This document shows, in pieces, positions 2,713 to 61,462 of a stretch of 64,000 nucleotides of DNA. The notes under the pieces were generated by a model. The model worked only from the letters and a program-made list of their open reading frames with translations. It was not told the origin of the DNA and ran no database searches. Source of the DNA: Octopus vulgaris (lineage: Eukaryota). The translations under genes were made by a program, and so were the position numbers. Numbering within the stretch: position 1 is the stretch's first letter; every line of letters starts with the position of its first letter. The stretch spans positions 37,448,001 through 37,512,000 of the forward strand of contig OX597815.1 in the NCBI GenBank assembly GCA_951406725.2, given 5' to 3'.

Positions 2713-5700
2713 ATCGAATCATTCAGAATCAACCTGACTTTAATCATCATCATTATTATCATAAACATTGTGTTTATGATCGTAATCGCCGTCATCACTT
2801 TCTTCATCCGGATCTTCAGAATCATTATTAGCAAGAACCTGATTTCACAAGGTTTATGATGTCAATAGATAAATTTGTCAATTACTGCAGGGATTTATCC
2901 TAAGGCAGGTTGTATGTTCTGAAAGTAGATATGCTGTTTCGCTGAAAGCGGAGATGCTGAAGTCTATTGGCAAATTGGCTTTCTATTCATGATGGTATTC
3001 CATACTTACTCTTATTGGTAAATTTATGACATGGTAATAAAAGAAGAATTCATATTATAGTGATATTAACGGCGATATTGTTGAAATGGAATTTATTTTT
3101 TGTTTTATACATTAGAAGAGGAAAGGCAGTATCCAAGAGCGATTTGTTGGGCTTCAGAGGCCTATGTACGAAGTTGAGGAAAAGAGAAATACTGAAGGTC
3201 ATTGTGGCCTCGATTCAGTGATCCATTCTTAAATTTATACCCTACTTTTCCTAGCTGAAATCCATACTGCACACACTGACTTGCAAAGAAGAAATCAGTT
3301 AAGGTACAGTGTCACAGCTGAGGCATGTTTCATTACCCTAGTCTATAGCTTATTACTGTATACTTACTGCCTGCCTAATGTTATTGTTATCATTGTTTTG
3401 CTATACAGACCCAGGCTAACCCTGATTGAACAGACCTATTATCAAAGATATCTAGGACCATCCCAACCCATCCTTTTATACATTTTGCTCAGAGGACAAT
3501 ATCCAACACATTTTCTCCTTTTCTAAGAGAGAAGGGTGTGACTTAAGAGAGAAATGACTACTGTTTCTTGCAAATTGAGCTATTACGTATAGGTTCCCTT
3601 GTTGGAAGAGCTTTTAGTTTGATTAAAAACGAATATTTGTCAATAAATCTCATGGATAGTATGGGGTTGCAATCTACGGCAGAACTTTTACCTTATCTTC
3701 CTCACTTACTAACTTATATTCGGTATTCCTCAATTTCTATTTCTTACACTCTATCTTTCTTACTAACGCTTATTCTCTGTCTGTTTATCTGTCTCTCTGT
3801 CGGTTTGTCTGTCTCTCCCACCTCTCTGTTTCTCTCTCTCTCATCGTTTCTGAAACATAGACATACTGACATATATACACACAAATACATACATATATAT
3901 GGCTGACGGTTTTGATCAGTTGCTATCGCAATTTTGGTGAACCCTTTGTGACATGATCCTATCGATCACCAATCTTAATTTCTTTTGTCTCATCTTTGTC
4001 TCATGACGCGGTTACTGGAACGTTGTAGAGAACTGACAAAATAACATGATTCAGTTTTCCTTGCCTATATTCAGCTACACAATTGTTTATTTATTTATTT
4101 CTAGACAATGTCTGGAATCTATGTCTTTCTAAATAAAGGATTGTTTCCTAATCATTCGCTAATGTTGGAAAGAATGCAACAGGATTCTTCGCCACATGAC
4201 ATTTCAAATTCTCAAACACACGCACATATTGATGTCTTTCACATGTCTAAAACATACAGCAAGCTAAAAATATTTAACAGATATATTTATCCTCCCACTC
4301 ACACACATATTCACATTCGAAAAAGATAATATTCTGTGACCTATAATCTTATTAACTGGTACTGATAAGCAATAATAATGTTAACTATTTTTTTGTCAAG
4401 AACACATTTAAATTGTTAAGCTAAGGATCCGCTGTTCTTTTTCAGATAATTATATTCTACGAAGATTCTTTACACTATAACTCGTTGTGTGCCACATATA
4501 GTGTATTTACACTGTCATGCATTTGCATTTAATCCTATTTTTGCCAATACTAGGCTGTTTGTTATAAGTTGTTTGTATTGCGTTGTTTGTTGCTGTTCAT
4601 TTACTCTAAGTATTTGCTCTGGATGATATGCAACCCACTTATTCTTGTCAGCATCATCAAATAATTTTGATACTGGAGTTATTCCTCTTTGTTACTTTCA
4701 TTTATATCCATTTGCATTTCAACTATTAACGTTAAAAAGCTATGCTGTTTGTGTAAATAACAGTACGCTATCTCAGATGGTTTTAATATCTAAAATAAAC
4801 TATTCAGTAAAATATTGGTAGTTAATTTATTATTTGCAGTGAGAGGAAAACATTGTGAGTATTGAATTTGAAATTGAAGGCTATTCAGACTAAACTCATT
4901 TAGTCATACATTACATCCGTGTAGAAATCTCTAAAATATGAGATTATACTTTCAAGTATACAAAAGCTATTTTCAAAAAACCTGTGGAAAATAATACTAG
5001 TCATTATTTGAAGCAACTGAAATAGCTGACCGTTGAGGATCCTAATCAATATTCTGGCTTTGTAGAATGGTTAATCGGAATCTATGTCATGGTCTGCTTC
5101 CAAATAATCTAACGTTGCTAAAATTTTAATTGCTTGTCAAATGCAAGAAATGTAAGGAAACAATTAATGATGCGTGATTTGTGATGCGAGATTTATAAAC
5201 AGCTGAACCTCATTAATGTTATTTGAAGAATACATTTCAAGGAATTACATTGGTGTAATTCATTATTTTTCCAGGAAATATATACTAGCATTTGGGTTCT
5301 TTAATGAAGCTTGATCACAGGTTTGGCGACAGTTCAAACCACAACACCAGTATAACAACATTGTAGCGCGGTGGATAAAATATCTTGTGGCATTTGGTTA
5401 AGCCTTTTCAAATTTAAAGTTTAAATCCTGCTGGGATCAATTTTTCCTTCCATTCCGCTGGAATCGATAACTATCTGGTTCAATAAGTTTACGACTGTTC
5501 TTCTAAACCACATCAACATATTTAAAGCTGGGTCAAACTTATGGCAATCTGACACCGAATGTGCAAATATAACATCGAAATTTATATCAGAAATTGTTTT
5601 CGAACGAATCGTTACAGTGACAGATGTGAATCTGTACATAGCAACATAGCTATGATGAAGTATGCTGTTGAATGGGTAATAGAACTGGTTCGCAATTCCT

Positions 5701-6351
5701 TCATATGTTAATATCAATGTAACTTAGCTGCGAAATTATAAATGTTTAATTACCACTTAAACGTATGTAGTCATAGAAATATTTGCTCGTGAAATCTACT
5801 AGAGTGTAAGGAATTATATATACAGAAGCCCTAAAAAGACCAAATCCCGTCAGTGAAGGCAACACCTTGATTTGTTAGTTGCAAGCCGATTGTTGTAAAA
5901 GAAGACGTGTAATACTGACCCGCTATAGTGTAGGCAAAGTTACCATTCCTTAACAGTATATGTTTTAAACAGAGTTGTACTATATTGGGCAAGTTAGAAA
6001 CTGTTCCTTTAAAGGAAAATGAAATAAGTTCGCAATATTTGCAGTGACTTCTAAATTACAGGGGTTGTTTAGTCAATTTATATTACGCGTTGTGCTTCTC
6101 CTCAGCGATCTAACTTTGTTGTAAAAAGACATGTTTCAAACAACCACTTGACATACGGTGGCATAACTACAACAATGTTAACATGTGATCAGGTTCGGTT
6201 TGGGAGAATCAGGCTCACTAACAAATAATGATGATCCATGTATTATGATACTTGCAGCTAAGGTTCATTTATAGATGGAGGTCTGATTAAGCACGTGTTT
6301 TGTACAACATACTGGGGAATCTTTTCGTTTATTCATTTATGCACCACACAC

Positions 6352-22503: not shown

Positions 22504-23137
22504 CACTTTCCTTTTACTGAGCAATTCAAAATTTACAAAAGGCCTTATATTTTTATCTACGTTTAGAATATACTTAACTCATTCCGAAGACGATAAATTT
22601 GTATTTATATGTGGCGTGTTTTGGTTCAGTTGAAAAATATCAACCGCGGCTTTATGTGAACTTATAATCGATTTGTGACTTTGTAAATATTTTAGTTATC
22701 AATATATATCTGTTTTGATCTACATATAACTAATTTATTTTCCAAACAAAAGCGTAATTACCTCCTCTGTTTATAATTTCAATCACAGATTACCTCCACT
22801 AAAATGTATTTACTTTCCGATTCATTTACAAAATATCGGTTCTCCTACGAAGATGCAATGCAAGCTTATTATAATACTCAGTCATGATTAGCATAAGCGA
22901 AACGGATCGACTATGCAAATATTTCATTTCCAACATAAAATTCCTGTGGATTTTTCTTCTTTTTATACTTTTATTGCAAATCACCGAGTGGAGTTTTATC
23001 TCGAACCTTAGAAATATATATATATAAATAAATAAATATATATATATATATATATAAAAGTTGAGTTGTGGGGTATCGCACGAGTGGGATTATATAAGAA
23101 AAAAGGTTTGAAAATGCAATTTAAACGATGTTTATTT

Positions 23138-23178
23138 ACTTAACCGGTTTCACTCTTTGGTAAAAGATTGTCAAAAGT
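23138..23178 (-). ncRNA. Minimal hammerhead-like motif (U3-A8), left arm
   Basis: Reverse complement of the 25640-25680 motif. Confidence 0.65.
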
Positions 23179-23954
23179 TACATTTAAGGAAACATTGAAT
23201 AATATGGGTTCAAAAAAAGGTTTTTACATAATTGTCACATTGAATATTATGCATTCAAAAAAGTTTTTTACATAATTGTCACATTGAATATTATGCATTC
23301 AAAAAAGTTTTTTACATAATTGTCACATTGGATATTATGAATTCAAAAATGTTTTTTTATACATAATTGTCACATTATTTGGGAAAATTTGGCAGAAAAG
23401 GATAAAACAAATATATTATTGGGAATTGGTTGCGTTAATTATTGGTTGTCGCAAATTGTCACATTACATGTATATATATACAATCTTTGGTATATATATA
23501 CAGCGTTTTGACAGCAAAAATTAAAATGGAATTTTTGTACATCTCAGAATATTTTAAGTATGTTTTTACTGACCTGTCAGTATTAGCAGAAAGGCTGAAC
23601 TGAGAGAACAGAAGAAGTAGCCAATGTGGTGTATACTTCCCCTTTATGCATGAATGATTTTGGGGTTATCAGGAGGTTAGTATGCGGGTGTGAATAGATG
23701 TGTCCGTGCCTGCTGGTCAGACAGCGTCTGTTTGTCACACACATATATATACACACAAACACACACACACACAACAACACACACACACACACACATAGTA
23801 TACAAACACACACCACATACAAACAACACACACACACACAGAACACACACATCCACACACAACGCACCCACATATATCACATATACACACAGCACACAAA
23901 TATAACATGTATCTATATATAACATACACAGATATATAACACACATACACACAC

Positions 23955-24001
<47 letters not shown>

Positions 24002-25639
24002 CACACGCACACATACATACATAATATAAATATCACACAAATACACCTAGCATATATATACACACATACAATACACACATACAGCATGTAAGTAATATAC
24101 ATACACAATATATGCATGCAATATACATACGCAATACATACATATAATATATATATATATAGACAATGCATATACATATATACACATATACATATAAATA
24201 GTGTTTACATACACATACATAGATGTACCACATATACACACAACACACATACATACAATGCATACACATACACGTACGCATACATATAATATATATATAC
24301 ACACACACACACATAACATACATACACACACAATGCATACATATATATACACGCAATGCATATACATGTATTCATGCACATATAGCACACCTACAATATA
24401 CATATATACAGTGCACACATACACACAAATATATACACTTAATTGTACACGTACATATACAATACACATACATACAATATACATATTGAATGTATATATA
24501 TATTATATGTATGCGTACGTGTATGTGTATGCATTGTATGTATGTGTGTTGTGTGTATATGTGGTACATCTATGTATGTGTATGTAAACACTATTTATAT
24601 GTATATGTGTATATATGTATATGCATTGTCTATATATATATATATTATATGTATGTATTGCGTATGTATATTGCATGCATATATTGTGTATGTATATTAC
24701 TTACATGCTGTATGTGTGTATTGTATGTGTGTATATATATGCTAGGTGTATTTGTGTGATATTTATATTATGTATGTATGTGTGCGTGTGTTGTGTGTGT
24801 GTGTGTGTGTGTGTGTTGTGTGTGTATGTGTGTTATATATCTGTGTATGTTATATATAGATACATGTTATATTTGTGTGCTGTGTGTATATGTGATATAT
24901 GTGGGTGCGTTGTGTGTGGGTGTGTGTGTTCTGTGTGTGTGTGTGTTGTTTGTATGTGGTGTGTGTTTGTATACTATGTGTGTGTGTGTGTGTGTTGTTG
25001 TTGTGTGTGTGTGTTTGTGTGTATATATATGTGTGTGACAAACAGACGCTGTCTGACCAGCAGGCACGGACACATCTATTCACACCCGCATACTAACCTC
25101 CTGATAACCCCAAAATCATTCATGCATAAAGGGGAAGTATACACCACATTGGCTACTTCTTCTGTTCTCTCAGTTCAGCCTTTCTGCTAATACTGACAGG
25201 TCAGTAAAAACATACTTAAAATATTCTGAGATGTACAAAAAATCCATTTTAATTTTTGCTGTCAAAACGCTGTATATATATACCAAAGATTGTATATATA
25301 TATACATGTAATGTGACAATTTGCGACAACCAATAATTAACGCAACCAATTCCCAATAATATATTTGTTTTATCCTTTTCTGCCAAATTTTCCCAAATAA
25401 TGTGACAATTATGTATAAAAAAACATTTTTGAATTCATAATATCCAATGTGACAATTATGTAAAAACTTTTTTGAATGCATAATATTCAATGTGACAATT
25501 ATGTAAAAAACTTTTTTTGAACCCATAATATCCAATGTGACAATTATGTAACAAACTTTTTTGAATGCATAATATTCAATGTGACAATTATGTAAAAAAC
25601 TTTTTTGAACCCATATTATTCAATGTTTCCTTAAATGTA

Positions 25640-25680
25640 ACTTTTGACAATCTTTTACCAAAGAGTGAAACCGGTTAAGT
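25640..25680 (+). ncRNA. Minimal hammerhead-like motif (U3-A8), right arm
   Basis: ACTT-TTGACAA-T-CTTTT acca AAGAG-T-GAAA-CCGG-TT-AAGT, then AATAAA. Helix III is palindromic. Confidence 0.65.
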
Positions 25681-25791
25681 AAATAAACATCGTTTAAATT
25701 GCATTTTCAAACCTTTTTTCTTATATATATATTTATATATATATATATATATATATATAAATATGGATATTATATATATATATATAAATAT

Positions 25792-27630
25792 GTTATTATG
25801 GATACCGAATACTATAAGGATTTGGTTGAAGACCAACTGAAGGATACAACCTTCTATTGTGAAATACCCGCAAATATAGACCACCACATCATGAAAAAGA
25901 TCAACAACCTGATTTCAACACACCACAACTCACTTACGGATAATGAAAAAGACTACATCACCAATTTTGAACCAAAACCCAGCAACTTCTACGGCTTACC
26001 AAAAATACACAAATCAAAAAACATTCAACAGGCAGTAAAAGAACAAGAAAGTGAGTACATAAAATTATTACATCCAAAAGACCTAAAACTTAGACCTATT
26101 ATAGCTGGTCCAGCATGCCCTACACACCGTCTAAGCAATTTTATTGACATTGTTTTGAAACCACTATGTACTTACATACCAAGTTTCATCAGGGATGACA
26201 TCGACTTCCTGTCCCATCTTCCCAAAACAACAGAAACAAATTCAGTTTTGCTAAGTTTTGATGTGGTAAGCCTCTACACCAATATTCCACACGATTTAGG
26301 AATAAAGGCGATTAAATACTGGTTAGAAAAACATAGAGAAGTGATTCCCAGCAGATTCACAGTGCCATTTATATTAGACACAGTCAAACTTATTCTAGAA
26401 AATAACACATTCTTCTTCAATGGAAAGAATTACATCCAAATTAGAGGCACGGCGATGGGAACGAGGTTTGCTCCCGTTTACGCCAACTCTGTAATGGGAT
26501 ACTTAGAAGAACAACTCTACCAAGAGGTGGAGGTAAACTATGGCACTGGATTTAGAAAGTATATTGAAAAGGCATGGAAGAGATACCTAGACGACTGTTT
26601 CATAATCTGGACAGAATCTCTAAATACTCTGGAAGAGTTCAATATCCTCCTGAACAACCTACACCCATCTCTCAAATTTACAAAGGAGATGAGTAGTACC
26701 AAATTACCATTCCTGGATATAATGGTAATTAAAAAAGACACCACCATCACCACAGATATATACTATAAACACACAGACACACATCAATACCTAAATTTTA
26801 AGTCGTGCCATCCACCACATACAAAACGTAACATCCCATACTGCCTAGCCAGAAGAATTTGTACTATTGTAGAAGATGCAAATATCAGGAACAAACGCCT
26901 AATAGAACTAAGAGAATTTTTGCACAAACAAAAATACCCATCTCTACTTATAGAAAATGGCATACAGCGGGCTATAAAAATACCTATACAACAACTTAGG
27001 ACAACCCAAGGAAGAGGAAAACAAGAACAAGTCATACCATTCATAGTGACACACAACCCATGTCACCAGAATATCTTCAACATTGCCAAAGCAAACCTAC
27101 CAATCATTGCCCAAAGTAATGAATTAAAAGACATAATCAAGGATCGAGCTATGGTGCTTAGTAAAAGACAGCCTAAAAACTTGAAAACATTACTAACAAA
27201 GGCAAAATTTGACCTCAGCAACAAAGACCAAACATTCACGGTATCTAAATGCAATGATAGCCGATGTGGCACATGCCAATTCATACATACCGGTCAATAT
27301 ATAAACACAAAAACCGGGAAAATATTCACAAACGCGAATATGAACTGCAAAAGCAGAAATTTAATTTACTGCATCAAATGCCCAAATTGTGAAGAAATAT
27401 ATGTAGGTCAGACGGGAAACGCACTATTAGAACGCTCACGTGTACACCGGCAACAGATTAGAGACCCAGAGGTCCGTCAGATACCTTTGAGTAACCACCT
27501 AGCAACATGTGGTCGGAAAATATATATAATATTTCCATTCTACAAATTACACAGCCCAAGTGAAATCGAGAGGAAAATCAGAGAAAAGAATTTTATTGAT
27601 AAATTCGAACCCAAGCTAAATAAGCAATAA
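25792..27630 (+). CDS. Penelope-like element ORF: reverse transcriptase + Cys-rich linker + GIY-YIG endonuclease (5'-truncated, Neptune-like)
   Basis: FYGLPKIHK, LRPII, SFDVVSLYTNIP, GTAMGT, RYLDD, PFLD, YYKHTDTHQYL, CNDSRCGTC and LIYCIKCPNCEEIYVGQTG. No stop over ~610 codons. It begins at VIMD, just after where the DKG motif would lie. First ATG at 25798. Confidence 0.95.
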   Translation, partial: VIMDTEYYKDLVEDQLKDTTFYCEIPANIDHHIMKKINNLISTHHNSLTDNEKDYITNFEPKPSNFYGLPKIHKSKNIQQAVKEQESEYIKLLHPKDLKLRPIIAGPACPTHRLSNFIDIVLKPLCTYIPSFIRDDIDFLSHLPKTTETNSVLLSFDVVSLYTNIPHDLGIKAIKYWLEKHREVIPSRFTVPFILDTVKLILENNTFFFNGKNYIQIRGTAMGTRFAPVYANSVMGYLEEQLYQEVEVNYGTGFRKYIEKAWKRYLDDCFIIWTESLNTLEEFNILLNNLHPSLKFTKEMSSTKLPFLDIMVIKKDTTITTDIYYKHTDTHQYLNFKSCHPPHTKRNIPYCLARRICTIVEDANIRNKRLIELREFLHKQKYPSLLIENGIQRAIKIPIQQLRTTQGRGKQEQVIPFIVTHNPCHQNIFNIAKANLPIIAQSNELKDIIKDRAMVLSKRQPKNLKTLLTKAKFDLSNKDQTFTVSKCNDSRCGTCQFIHTGQYINTKTGKIFTNANMNCKSRNLIYCIKCPNCEEIYVGQTGNALLERSRVHRQQIRDPEVRQIPLSNHLATCGRKIYIIFPFYKLHSPSEIERKIREKNFIDKFEPKLNKQ

Positions 27631-28315
27631 TAATAATACTTAGAGGTATTACTTCCACTGCTACGACCATGACCACTAACAACAACAACAATACTAAAGG
27701 TGATCAAGACGAAGATAGCAGGAAAATTATCTTATTTAGGGTTAAAAGTTCTATTGCCACCACCATCACCACTAGCAACAATAATTAAGGTGCTGACAAT
27801 GATGATGATGACAATTGAAATATAAAAATATAAAAATCTCTGACAAAGGATATTTACAACATTTCTAAAAATAACCCAACAATTGCTGCTTCGGCCAGGG
27901 TCAAGATACAGGACTCTTGACCTGTCCAACAAAGCTTGATGCCTAAACCAATCAGCTCAACCAACCAATCAGCTTAAGTAATTGAGTGATACTACACACT
28001 GATTGGTCAGAATACAGTTTGCAAAACCTAGCACTCTGGAGCCTACCCAGCTGTATTTATAGCACAGAATCACTCATCTTGCTACAGTCAAAAATTGTGA
28101 AGCATGACTGTCAACACTACTACATGAACCCGAAGATTGCAGAATTCAATGCATGAAAGTACTAGTTCAATCAGAATGAATATTTAACATTCTACTATTT
28201 CATTTTATTTTATTCAATTATAATATATTATCTTATAATATATCATTATAAGATTGTAAATAAAACGTGAAAATCAGACAAGGTTGGAATTCTTTTTATT
28301 AATATATTCTTCTAT
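27631..28315 (+). mobile_element. 3' UTR/pLTR of the Penelope-like element
   Basis: Follows the ORF stop, contains a hammerhead-like motif and ends in a (CA)n(TA)n tract. Confidence 0.75.
28125..28169 (+). ncRNA. Minimal hammerhead-like motif (C4 variant)
   Basis: TGAAC-CCGAAGA-T-TGCA gaattcaa TGCA-T-GAAA-GTAC-TA-GTTCA. Confidence 0.7.
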
Positions 28316-28429: not shown

Positions 28430-28750
28430 GTGAGTGTGTGTATGTGTGTGTGTATGTGTGTGTAAATATAATATGTGACAATTATTCGGTTGCCATGAGT
28501 TTCGGATATCGGAGTGGAAATCCACGCCACCATCTCTTCATAATATCGAGGTCTCTTTCATTCTTTTGTTGTCTTACCATTTCTATCAACATATATATAT
28601 ATATATAAAATCGTGTGTTGAAACATATATTGTTGTATTTAGGAATGGTCATTTTGCCAGTTTAGCCAATAAAAACACACGCACTATATATTTGGTGTTA
28701 CTTTGCTTCAGCGTAATTAATTTCTAACATTAATCTTAATCTTATTTCGG

Positions 28751-28790
28751 CCAGAGTTCTTTCGTCACATTCCTGTGACCTCATCAGTGG
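28751..28790 (-). ncRNA. Hammerhead ribozyme motif
   Basis: Minus strand CCA-CTGATGA-G-GTCAC aggaat GTGAC-GAAA-GAAC-TC-TGG. Confidence 0.8.
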
Positions 28791-28982
28791 TTCTTTGCTT
28801 TCTTCTTTTTCATTTGTGTGTCTCTCCTTACTAACGATCAGCCATTTTGTATTACGTATTCCTATTGTATGTGTCTTCATTTACACATGCGTATACTTCT
28901 ATGTGTTTCTATGTTTAGTTAGTGTGTGTGTATGTATGTGTGTGAGGAGAGACACACAAATAAGAAAGAAGAAAGCAAAGGA

Positions 28983-29022
28983 CCACTGATGAGGTCACAG
29001 GAGTGTGACGAAAGATCTATGG
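28983..29022 (+). ncRNA. Hammerhead ribozyme motif
   Basis: CCA-CTGATGA-G-GTCAC aggagt GTGAC-GAAA-GATC-TA-TGG. Confidence 0.8.
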
Positions 29023-29597
29023 CCGAAATAAGATTAAGATTAACGTAAAAAGTGAATAACGCTGAAGCAAAGTAACACCAAATATATAGTGCGTGTGTTT
29101 TCATTGGCTAAACTGGCAAAATGACCATTCCTAAATACAACAATATATATATAAATATATAAAGAGAAATACGCCCCAAAATTATCGCAGTGCGACTGAA
29201 TCTTGCACTGATAGATTGCGAAGCAAACTTCTTAAATCATTTGGAGGGTTGCTTTCACATACTGTATCGCCGTTCACCCATCCATAAACTTTCGCACACA
29301 CGCGTTCTTTTCATTAACAAAATCCTCCATTTGTAATATTGTAATTAGACATATCGAGTGGGAACCCTTTGAACATTACACATTCTATAACGCACTGTAT
29401 TACACAGTTACATAATTTATTGAACGATCTACAACTTAAACTTTTACATTATCTATATATTCTGGAATTTCACTGCAGCAAAATGTGAAGAATATAGCAA
29501 AAATTAAACCTTCAACGCTTGGTTTTCTTGTAACAGCCACAGTATTTAATCAGATTTGAAAGATGCCGACCTTCCATAAGACTGAGTTCATGTCGAC

Positions 29598-40546: not shown

Positions 40547-40960
40547 AAGGCGCGAGCTGGCAGAAACGTTAGCACGCCGGGCGAAATGCGTAGCTATATT
40601 TCGTCTGCCGTTGCGTTCTGAGTTCAAATTCCGCCGAGGTCGACTTTGCCTTTCATCCTTTCGGGGTAGATTAAATAAGTACCAGTTACGCACTGGGTCG
40701 ATAAAATCGACTTAATCCGTGTGTCTGTCCTTCTTTGTCCTCTCTGTGTTTAGCCCCTTGTGGGTAGTAAAGAAATAGGTATTTTGTATGCCGCTATCTT
40801 CTGAGTTCAAATTCCGCCGAGGTCGACTTTGCCTTTCATCCTTTCGGGGTCGACTAAATAAGTACCAGTTACGCACTGGGGTCGATATAATCGACTTAAT
40901 CCGTGTGTCTGTCCTTGTTTGTCCTCTCTGTGTTTAGCCCCTTGTGGGTAGTAAAGAAAT
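40547..40960 (+). mobile_element. Dimeric SINE family A with a 16-bp TSD
   Basis: One head and two body units. AGAAAGAGAGTAAAAG at 40531-40546 and 40961-40976. Confidence 0.92.
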
Positions 40961-41009
40961 AGAAAGAGAGTAAAAGCGATACTTTATGCTTAGATTGCTC
41001 TTGAGTGAT

Positions 41010-42664: not shown

Positions 42665-43453
42665 ATCTTGGCAAAAGGCCGGGAATTTTGGAGAGAGGGG
42701 GCTAGTCGATTAAATCGACCCAAGCACGCAGCTGGTACTTGATTTATCGACCCCGAAAGGATGAAAGGCAAAGTCAACCTCGGTGGAATTTGAACTCAGA
42801 ACGTAAAGACAGACGAAATATCGCTAAGGAATTCGCCCAGCGTGCTAACGTTTCTTATTTCTTTATTGCCCACAAGGAGCTAAACATAGAGGGGACAAAC
42901 AAGTACAGACAAAGGGATTAATTCGATTAGATCCACCCCAGTGCGTTTGGTACTTAATTTATCGACCCCGAAAGGATGAAAGGCAAAGTCGACCTCGGCG
43001 GAATTTGAACTCAGAACGTAACGGCAGACGAAATACCTATTTCTTTACTACCCTCAATGGGCTAAACACAGAGAGGGAAAACAAGGACAGACAAAGGGAT
43101 TAAGTCGATTACATCGACCCCAGTGCGTAACTTGTACTTAATTTATTGACCCTGAAAGGATGAAAGGCAAAGTCGACCCCGGCGGAATTTGAACTCACAA
43201 CGTAACGGCAGACGAAATACCTATTTCTTTATTACCCAAAAGGTACTAAACATAGAGGGGACAAACAAGGACAGACATAGGTATTAAGTCGCTTATATCG
43301 ACCCCAGTGCGAAACTGGTACTTTATTTATCGACCCCGAAAGAATGAAAGGCAAAGTCGACCTCGGCGGAATTTGAACTCAGAATGTAACGACAGACAAA
43401 ATACCGCCAAGCGTTTCGCCTGGCGTGCTAACGTTTCTCCCAGCTCGTCGCCG
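42665..43453 (-). mobile_element. Tandem array of four SINE family A units
   Basis: atcgacccc/ttgaccc-gaaag.atgaaaggcaaagtc repeats at about 42750, 42961, 43145 and 43330, a period of roughly 180-210 bp. Confidence 0.92.
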
Positions 43454-43659
43454 TTGATAAGGTTCAACATTGTCAAAGCTATGAAGGCACAGCTCTAATA
43501 TCTTATAAGCTGAGACTCATCGCAATTTTTTTTTTTTATTAATTTCTTTCTCTTTGCTTGTATCACAGTTTCAGTATTTGGATATGTACGTTTCCTCTAA
43601 GTATTTTGGTTTCTGCACCTTAAAAGAATGTCTTTACTTCTGTATATATATTTACTTAC

Positions 43660-60689: not shown

Positions 60690-61462
60690 CTGTAATATCA
60701 TGTGTAAATAAATATAAATGATAATATAGGATTCTATTAGTAATATATAACAACTCTTCTCCTTTATTTAAAGCTACTGATATAAAAAAAAAATATCTAA
60801 AGTAACAAAAAAATGTTCTTTATTTACTGAGTTTATCGGAGAGAAAATTCCGTAATAAATAGGAAAAGAAAATTAGAGCTACAATAACTTCAATCTATAT
60901 TACCCCATAGATATAGAGTTAGGCTATAATAGTGGATATTAAAATATTACTATTTGTTCAGATGTAACCAAATTTGAAGTAACTCAAATAAGGATTATAC
61001 GCAGTAACTAACAAGTAAATGTCCCTATATACGTATATTACGGAAGGGAGAATAAAATAAAGTAAGATAAGCAAAAACATGGAGTACCGATCCACAATAT
61101 CAATAATCAATATTATTTTTTAGATAAAGGACTATAAATAGTATATATATGTATATATCCAAATTTTATTAAATCTTTCAGAAGTAACAAAATTATATTG
61201 TTGCAATAAGAATACATGCTATAAACTATACAATACTATAATAATTATTATTAGACTTTACTGAACAGTTATTGTTAGGTTTCTCTTCATATTTATTACG
61301 GAATTCCCCCTCCGATAAACTAAGTAAATAAAGGACATATTTTTTGTTACTTTAGATAATTTTTTTTTATATCAATACCTTTAAATAAAGAAGAAGAGTT
61401 GTTATATATTACCAAAAGAATACTATATTATCATTTATATTTATTTACATGTTTTATTACAG
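60690..61462. repeat. AT-rich inverted repeat (arms ~60690-60892 and ~61262-61462)
   Basis: For example, tttatcggagagaaaattccgtaataaat pairs with atttattacggaattccccctccgataaa. Confidence 0.88.

Follow-up and report, generated by a model that had tools for sequence, protein, structure and literature searches.

A palindrome at a (TA)n target

In the 64-kb stretch of Octopus vulgaris DNA analyzed here (the window), an inverted-repeat search found a near-perfect inverted repeat at 23091-25725, with innermost blocks 189 nt apart. Block by block the arms are 94-100% complementary; they differ by one unit of a 44-bp minisatellite (4.1 units at 23192-23376, 5.1 units at 25399-25626), by 20 nt of (CA)n, and by a few substitutions. 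An ORF scan found no meaningful ORF inside the palindrome. An earlier note on this DNA, which described two near-identical inverted arms around about 190 bp without a real ORF, and minisatellites of 4 versus 5 units of about 44 bp with (CA)n of unequal length, was accurate on each of these points. It also described each outer end as a hammerhead-like motif followed by AATAAA and (TA)n. The motifs, the AATAAA (25682-25687, + strand), and the (TA)n flanks (23014-23055 on the left, 25722-25791 on the right) are all present, but on the left a 35-nt tail (23056-23090, - strand), ending in a T-run plus TA and found on this arm only, precedes the (TA)n.

The left arm (23056-24486, - strand, 1.43 kb including the tail) and the right arm (24491-25727, + strand, 1.24 kb, untailed) are both truncated at the 5' end and meet head to head at four untemplated bases (24487-24490). 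The segment that the earlier note took for a spacer apart from the arms is largely a continuation of the left arm: 185 nt (24302-24486, - strand) are additional 3' UTR present in this arm only, matching other copies at 100% and contiguous with the arm there, which leaves only 24487-24490 untemplated. Among the best 40 of 507 candidates genome-wide, no second locus spans this junction.

The arms are 3'-UTR pieces of a Penelope-like element

Both arms derive from the 3' UTR of a 5.9-kb, ORF-bearing Penelope-like element (PLE), which we call the parent. One locus (L049), which contains the 5875-nt unit in full, served as the natural reference copy for arm positions. Its order is a short pLTR with a hammerhead, the tail, ORF1, ORF2, and a 2.2-kb microsatellite-rich 3' UTR that ends with the minisatellite, the hammerhead, and AATAAA. 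The left arm corresponds to unit positions 4447-5875 plus the tail, and the right arm to 4632-5875; ORF2 ends at position 3686, and in the fetched loci the arm sequence runs upstream into PLE coding region. The palindrome lacks an ORF solely because both copies end within the parent's long 3' UTR. The tail comprises the initial bases of the following tandem unit and matches the stretch from the hammerhead end to ORF1 in full-length copies. That the arms map to this unit bears out the earlier proposal of a Penelope-related, hammerhead-bearing structure made by a PLE reverse transcriptase (RT) and GIY-YIG endonuclease.

ORF2 of L049 contains an RT, a Cx4CxxC linker, and a GIY-YIG domain with CCHH. 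Pfam RVT_1 scores 33.1 bits above its cut-off in the parent ORF2, in which Pfam GIY-YIG gives no score; a neighboring PLE ORF in the window does score with Pfam GIY-YIG and aligns over its full length with the parent ORF2, with the Cys and His residues kept. ORF1 (447 aa; L049:5558-6895, - strand) is conserved in its N-terminal 250 aa. Neither Pfam nor Atlas gave it a name (best score 0.78), and it has five stand-alone relatives of 267-398 aa. The parent thus combines the features of endonuclease-bearing (EN+) PLEs, namely a PLE-type RT with C-terminal GIY-YIG and CCHH, and a hammerhead motif in the pLTR. Its family also shows the pLTR or partial tandem, the tail, and the inverted 5'-truncated copy, and a full tandem occurs at one locus (L112). 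The Cx4CxxC linker, present in both parent and neighbor, fits the Neptune pattern CX2-5CxxC, a feature common to Nematis too. From this linker and the (TA)n/microsatellite target, rather than from an RT tree, we provisionally classify the parent as Neptune-type; the combination of RT with C-terminal GIY-YIG and CCHH, Cx4CxxC linker, and microsatellite target resembles that described for the Neptune clade (PMC8557442) and for a killifish Neptune (PMC12602865). Among 20 full-length loci, fetched from the best 40 scored, 7 have both ORFs open, which suggests a young family, plausibly one still active. A list of 30 recently active Penelope families has been given for an octopus (PMC13282606).

The inverted head-to-head layout itself is already published for this class: descriptions of EN+ PLEs include an inverted 5'-truncated copy and a one-sided tail of 30-40 bp (Craig et al., 2021, PMC8557442; Arkhipova et al., 2013, PMC3846280). 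The palindrome resembles those insertions in its truncated copy joined head to head, its 35-nt tail on one side only, the (TA)n, the hammerhead near the 3' end, and, in its family, partial tandems. It differs from them in the place where both copies end, within a 3' UTR that is rich in microsatellites and, at 2.2 kb, unusually long. The locus is in itself ordinary, and its value lies in the regularities of the family to which it belongs.

Minimal hammerhead motifs in both arms

A minimal type I hammerhead motif lies near the outer end of each arm, at 23138-23180 (- strand) and at 25638-25680 (+ strand). The parts are a 4-bp helix I, the core UUGACAA with a U3-A8 pair (25644-25650 in the right arm), a helix II hairpin, GAAA (25667-25670), a palindromic helix III, and a GUU triplet, with the right-arm cut predicted after 25676. 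The motifs depart from the usual hammerhead consensus in this cut triplet and in having U.U rather than G10.1-C11.1 at the closure of helix II. A hammerhead descriptor matched the window four times and none of 30 shuffled sequences, in line with the earlier note's placement of a hammerhead-like motif near each outer end. Rfam made no hammerhead call in the window, returning only low-complexity miRNA look-alikes below the gathering score, and single-strand folding of the arm motif did not give the hammerhead as the minimum-free-energy fold of the monomer (z about 0).

Genome-wide, the exact 32-nt hammerhead sequence has 688 matches (control 0), and a looser pattern with the same helix III has 7029 matches versus 105 in a reversed control. 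Among the first 100 listed of these 7029, the 3-8 Watson-Crick pair is kept in 98 (96 U-A and 2 C-G, counted by eye), and several unrelated helix II sequences retain pairing. U.U closure of helix II recurs in several of the genome-wide hammerhead families, with U3-A8 predominant among the first 100 listed.

These features parallel the minimal PLE hammerheads described by Cervera and de la Pena (2014, PMC4209133), which have a short helix I, a palindromic helix III, a U3-A8 core variant, and close pairs on opposite strands, and for which poor cleavage, as dimers, is described. Judged from sequence, self-cleavage by the arm motifs is probably low. A read-through transcript of the palindrome would give a duplex of about 1.2 kb, in which pairing with the antisense copy would likely tie up the lone sense hammerhead.

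Fold-backs across the genome

To the segment unique to the arms there are 732 candidates genome-wide; the best 40 of these are all 100% identical, and many form inverted pairs 1-9 kb apart. Our survey comprised 71 loci: 47 from all 68 matches to the 32-mer on one contig (C1), 23 from the arm-segment search, which lie off that contig and were picked by 100% identity, and the window itself. Tail-out fold-backs make up 26 of the 47 loci on C1 and 44 of the 71 overall, and (TA) of at least four repeats lies within 50 nt of all 115 outer ends (115/115). Some C1 loci belong to sister subfamilies that have only the 3' end in common with the parent; their arm lengths are therefore unreliable, and we omitted them from the set of 29 clean junctions used below. 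Three loci scored as single (L056, L069, and L046) nonetheless hold an inverted piece and stand outside the 44. In three fold-backs (L039, L060, and L089), additional template jumps or inversions lie internally, between the arms.

The earlier note had suggested a distinct non-coding element mobilized in trans, an ORF-less fold-back replicating as a unit. Non-autonomous PLE derivatives are known (PMC8557442; bioRxiv 10.64898/2026.07.22.740005), and 18 of the 44 fold-backs lack coding sequence. The other 26 have it, however, as do 21 of the 47 C1 loci and 33 of the 71 overall, and both ORFs survive in full-length loci as noted above. Breakpoints differ from locus to locus, no two loci sharing the same ones, and grade continuously into the ORF; the junction at 24487-24490, too, is unique among the candidates compared. 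We therefore regard a trans-mobilized unit as very improbable. The arms are the usual 3' ends found in an autonomous family, which is largely the outcome that the earlier note had set against its own reading, although other copies do often invert, with breakpoints of their own. The palindrome resembles non-LTR retrozymes (bioRxiv 10.64898/2026.07.22.740005) in being ORF-less and PLE-derived with a type I hammerhead, but those are described as units arranged head to tail in tandem and amplified as such, and this is a one-off inverted stump; the many copies of one ORF-less structure with common ends that would mark a retrozyme or non-autonomous element are not found for it among the loci compared. 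The stump shows neither an ORF nor evidence of a promoter and is most likely a dead one-off; annotation should treat such stumps as PLE ends rather than as new fold-back elements or MITEs.

Exactly one outer end carries the tail in 43 of the 44 fold-backs (binomial p = 2.6e-12 against 0.5). The exception (L033) has two tails, and no fold-back has none (0/44). One tailed end is also seen in all three full-length loci with both outer ends visible (L101, L105, and L115). Where the junction is clean (29 fold-backs), the longer arm bears the tail in 19 cases, the shorter arm in 9, and both arms in 1; the junctions themselves comprise 17 overlaps of 1-16 nt, 10 short inserts, and 2 blunt joins.

Long near-perfect palindromes are a known artefact of long-read sequencing, in which a read or an assembly folds back on itself. 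Such an origin has next to no probability here: the arms differ in a minisatellite unit, the tail, and substitutions, and 44 fold-back loci obey the same element-specific end rules. The window, moreover, contains no N (0 in 64 kb).

Probable double priming on one RNA source

Arms of the same locus resemble each other more than arms drawn from different loci. In the 25 loci with the unique segment in both arms, the two arms differ by 0.8 substitutions, whereas permuted pairing gives 1.65 (none of 5000 permutations was as low); at the commonest variant site 24 of the 25 arm pairs agree, and rare alleles are common to both arms. Minisatellite copy number is frequently unequal between the arms of one locus. 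The tailed and untailed start sites both end in a T-run plus TATATA.

With high confidence, we interpret the palindrome as a pair of 3'-UTR copies, each truncated at its 5' end, of a young Neptune-type PLE that bears ORFs. They lie head to head in (TA)n and likely arose together in one insertion, with reverse transcription primed from both cut DNA ends on the same RNA source. The GIY-YIG endonuclease would cleave both strands within the (TA)n; one 3'-OH would prime at the tail end, and the second would do so at the untailed end, 35 nt upstream; the T-run plus TATATA at both priming sites could pair with the target. Each cDNA would stop on its own, here inside the 2.2-kb UTR, and end-joining would then link the two 5'-truncated ends. 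Two independent RNAs as arm templates would explain neither the one-tail coupling nor the shared alleles. Counting against a single RNA source, allele sharing could also result if the arms underwent gene conversion afterwards or if one source locus were dominant, and the unequal minisatellite number, which fits slippage, also fits separate templates.

Alternatively, a single cDNA could snap back, prime itself, and copy itself, the arms being made unequal by a later central deletion; self-priming has been put forward for such inversions (PMC3846280). Alleles common to both arms would be expected of it, the junction overlaps are compatible with microhomology deletion, and the longer arm is the tailed one in 19 of the 28 clean one-tail junctions. 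In the other 9 of these 28 the tail is on the shorter arm, sometimes shorter by more than 3 kb (as in L031), and since a copy cannot gain a tail that its template lacks, snap-back requires an extra deletion for each of them. Tiny inverted stubs of both end types also speak against it (an untailed stub of 52 nt in L069 and a 14-nt tail piece in L046). The one-tail coupling, together with the occurrence of the tail on either arm and the shared alleles, favors two primings on one RNA source, and we consider snap-back unlikely.

Two primings have an experimental parallel: a PLE protein, Poseidon PAc, cuts and extends both strands of AT-rich targets in vitro, and its RT starts at two sites, one on either side of the tail (Frangieh et al., 2024, PMC11167929). 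The Poseidon start sites are described as lying inside an ORF and without homology to the target, whereas those of the parent lie upstream of ORF1 and end in TA repeats like the target. As that report found neither a strand bias of the start sites nor template-target homology, Poseidon shows no counterpart of the strict one-tail coupling or of TA pairing. The tail rule, near-obligate here, is given only as 'often' in the published accounts of EN+ PLE insertions. We found no quantified tail asymmetry in the literature on EN+ PLEs, though it may be in print, Repbase, Dfam, and supplements having been outside the search. Beyond the literature that we found are the 43/44 rule, the tail on either arm, and the allele sharing between arms. 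The family offers a large and very young natural set of insertions that narrows how PLEs build inverted structures, and these three regularities yield predictions for the existing in vitro PLE system.

A putative frameshift site between ORF1 and ORF2

The parent does not have a single ORF: two overlapping ORFs of 447 and 758 aa recur across copies, with ORF2 in the -1 frame relative to ORF1. The overlap contains the heptamer T TTT TTA in the ORF1 register, and in 28 copies the T-run has six T in 22, five in 5, and three in 1. The same heptamer is found in 9 of 10 loci of a family at 54% identity to the parent, a T-run stands at the site in 20 of 25 loci of the neighbor's family, at 45% identity (the remaining 5 are truncated), and the heptamer is in register in 5 of 9 closer relatives at 77-94% identity. 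In each of the three families the run is unique within the 3.4-3.6 kb examined, where T makes up about 20%.

Retention of U UUU UUA/U in the -1 register in three families at 45-54% identity points to ribosomal frameshifting; in the parent, as predicted from sequence, a -1 frameshift likely joins ORF1 to ORF2 in a fusion that supplies the RT-endonuclease. In the parent family (family A) an ATG overlaps the ORF1 stop, and reinitiation there is a rival explanation. It fails for the two other families because the first Met of their ORF2, at residues 59 and 134, lies past the conserved N-terminal block. A search of the parent for downstream stimulatory hairpins (hairpins only) found none, the 50-90 nt fold being no better than shuffles, and a weak search among longer proteins found no fused ORF1-ORF2 protein.

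The arrangement resembles the retroviral gag-pol -1 frameshift (PMC4373837), with the same heptamer U UUU UUA in the same register and a first ORF followed by an RT ORF. The killifish Neptune (PMC12602865) likewise has two ORFs, but they are described as non-overlapping in the consensus, whereas those of the parent overlap at the slippery heptamer. According to the legend of Fig. 1 in PMC8557442, a frameshift with a pseudoknot can set ORF1 apart in animal PLEs, in a clade that the legend leaves unnamed; the parent site differs in that no downstream hairpin was detected. The same literature search on EN+ PLEs found no named slippery site beyond this legend, again with the proviso that one may be in print in sources it did not cover (Repbase, Dfam, and supplements). 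Translational recoding in an endonuclease-bearing PLE is directly testable at this conserved site with a reporter.

We lean towards a more specific reading in which a PLE dimer holds one RNA and two RTs start at fixed sites 35 nt apart, both pairing with (TA)n, so that each cut strand gets its own cDNA and one end is tailed and the other untailed, and in which, in addition, synthesis of the RT-endonuclease would depend entirely on a -1 frameshift of the retroviral type at U UUU UUA/U, with no evident stimulator.

Other elements in the window

A second-family PLE, 5'-truncated and outside the palindrome, lies at 25790-28315 (+ strand), having landed in the same (TA)n tract as the palindrome. 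Its 610-aa ORF with RT and GIY-YIG (25798-27630) begins about 70 nt to the right of the palindrome, and its own hammerhead, a C4 variant, starts at 28124. We rejected this ORF as the parent: it has no DNA match to the arms, 47% amino acid identity to the parent ORF2, and a hammerhead of its own. The neighbor's family is also young, the best 40 of 547 candidates being at 100%.

A third, smaller fold-back at 28600-29160 has 207-nt arms that are 93% identical, each with a CUGAUGA...GAAA motif. It has 1650 candidates genome-wide, several of them inverted, and PLE protein lies within 1.5 kb at 1 of 14 other loci. At 1575-2330 a GIY-YIG fragment precedes a hammerhead motif of the U3-A8 type (at 2283), with an inverted repeat (1168-1240/1431-1503) directly upstream; this is probably another PLE end. 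A further inverted repeat of 200 nt, 87% identical, occupies 60690-60889 and 61267-61462, and a dispersed SINE-like repeat in tandem 184-bp units is found at 40549-40965 and 42704-43456.
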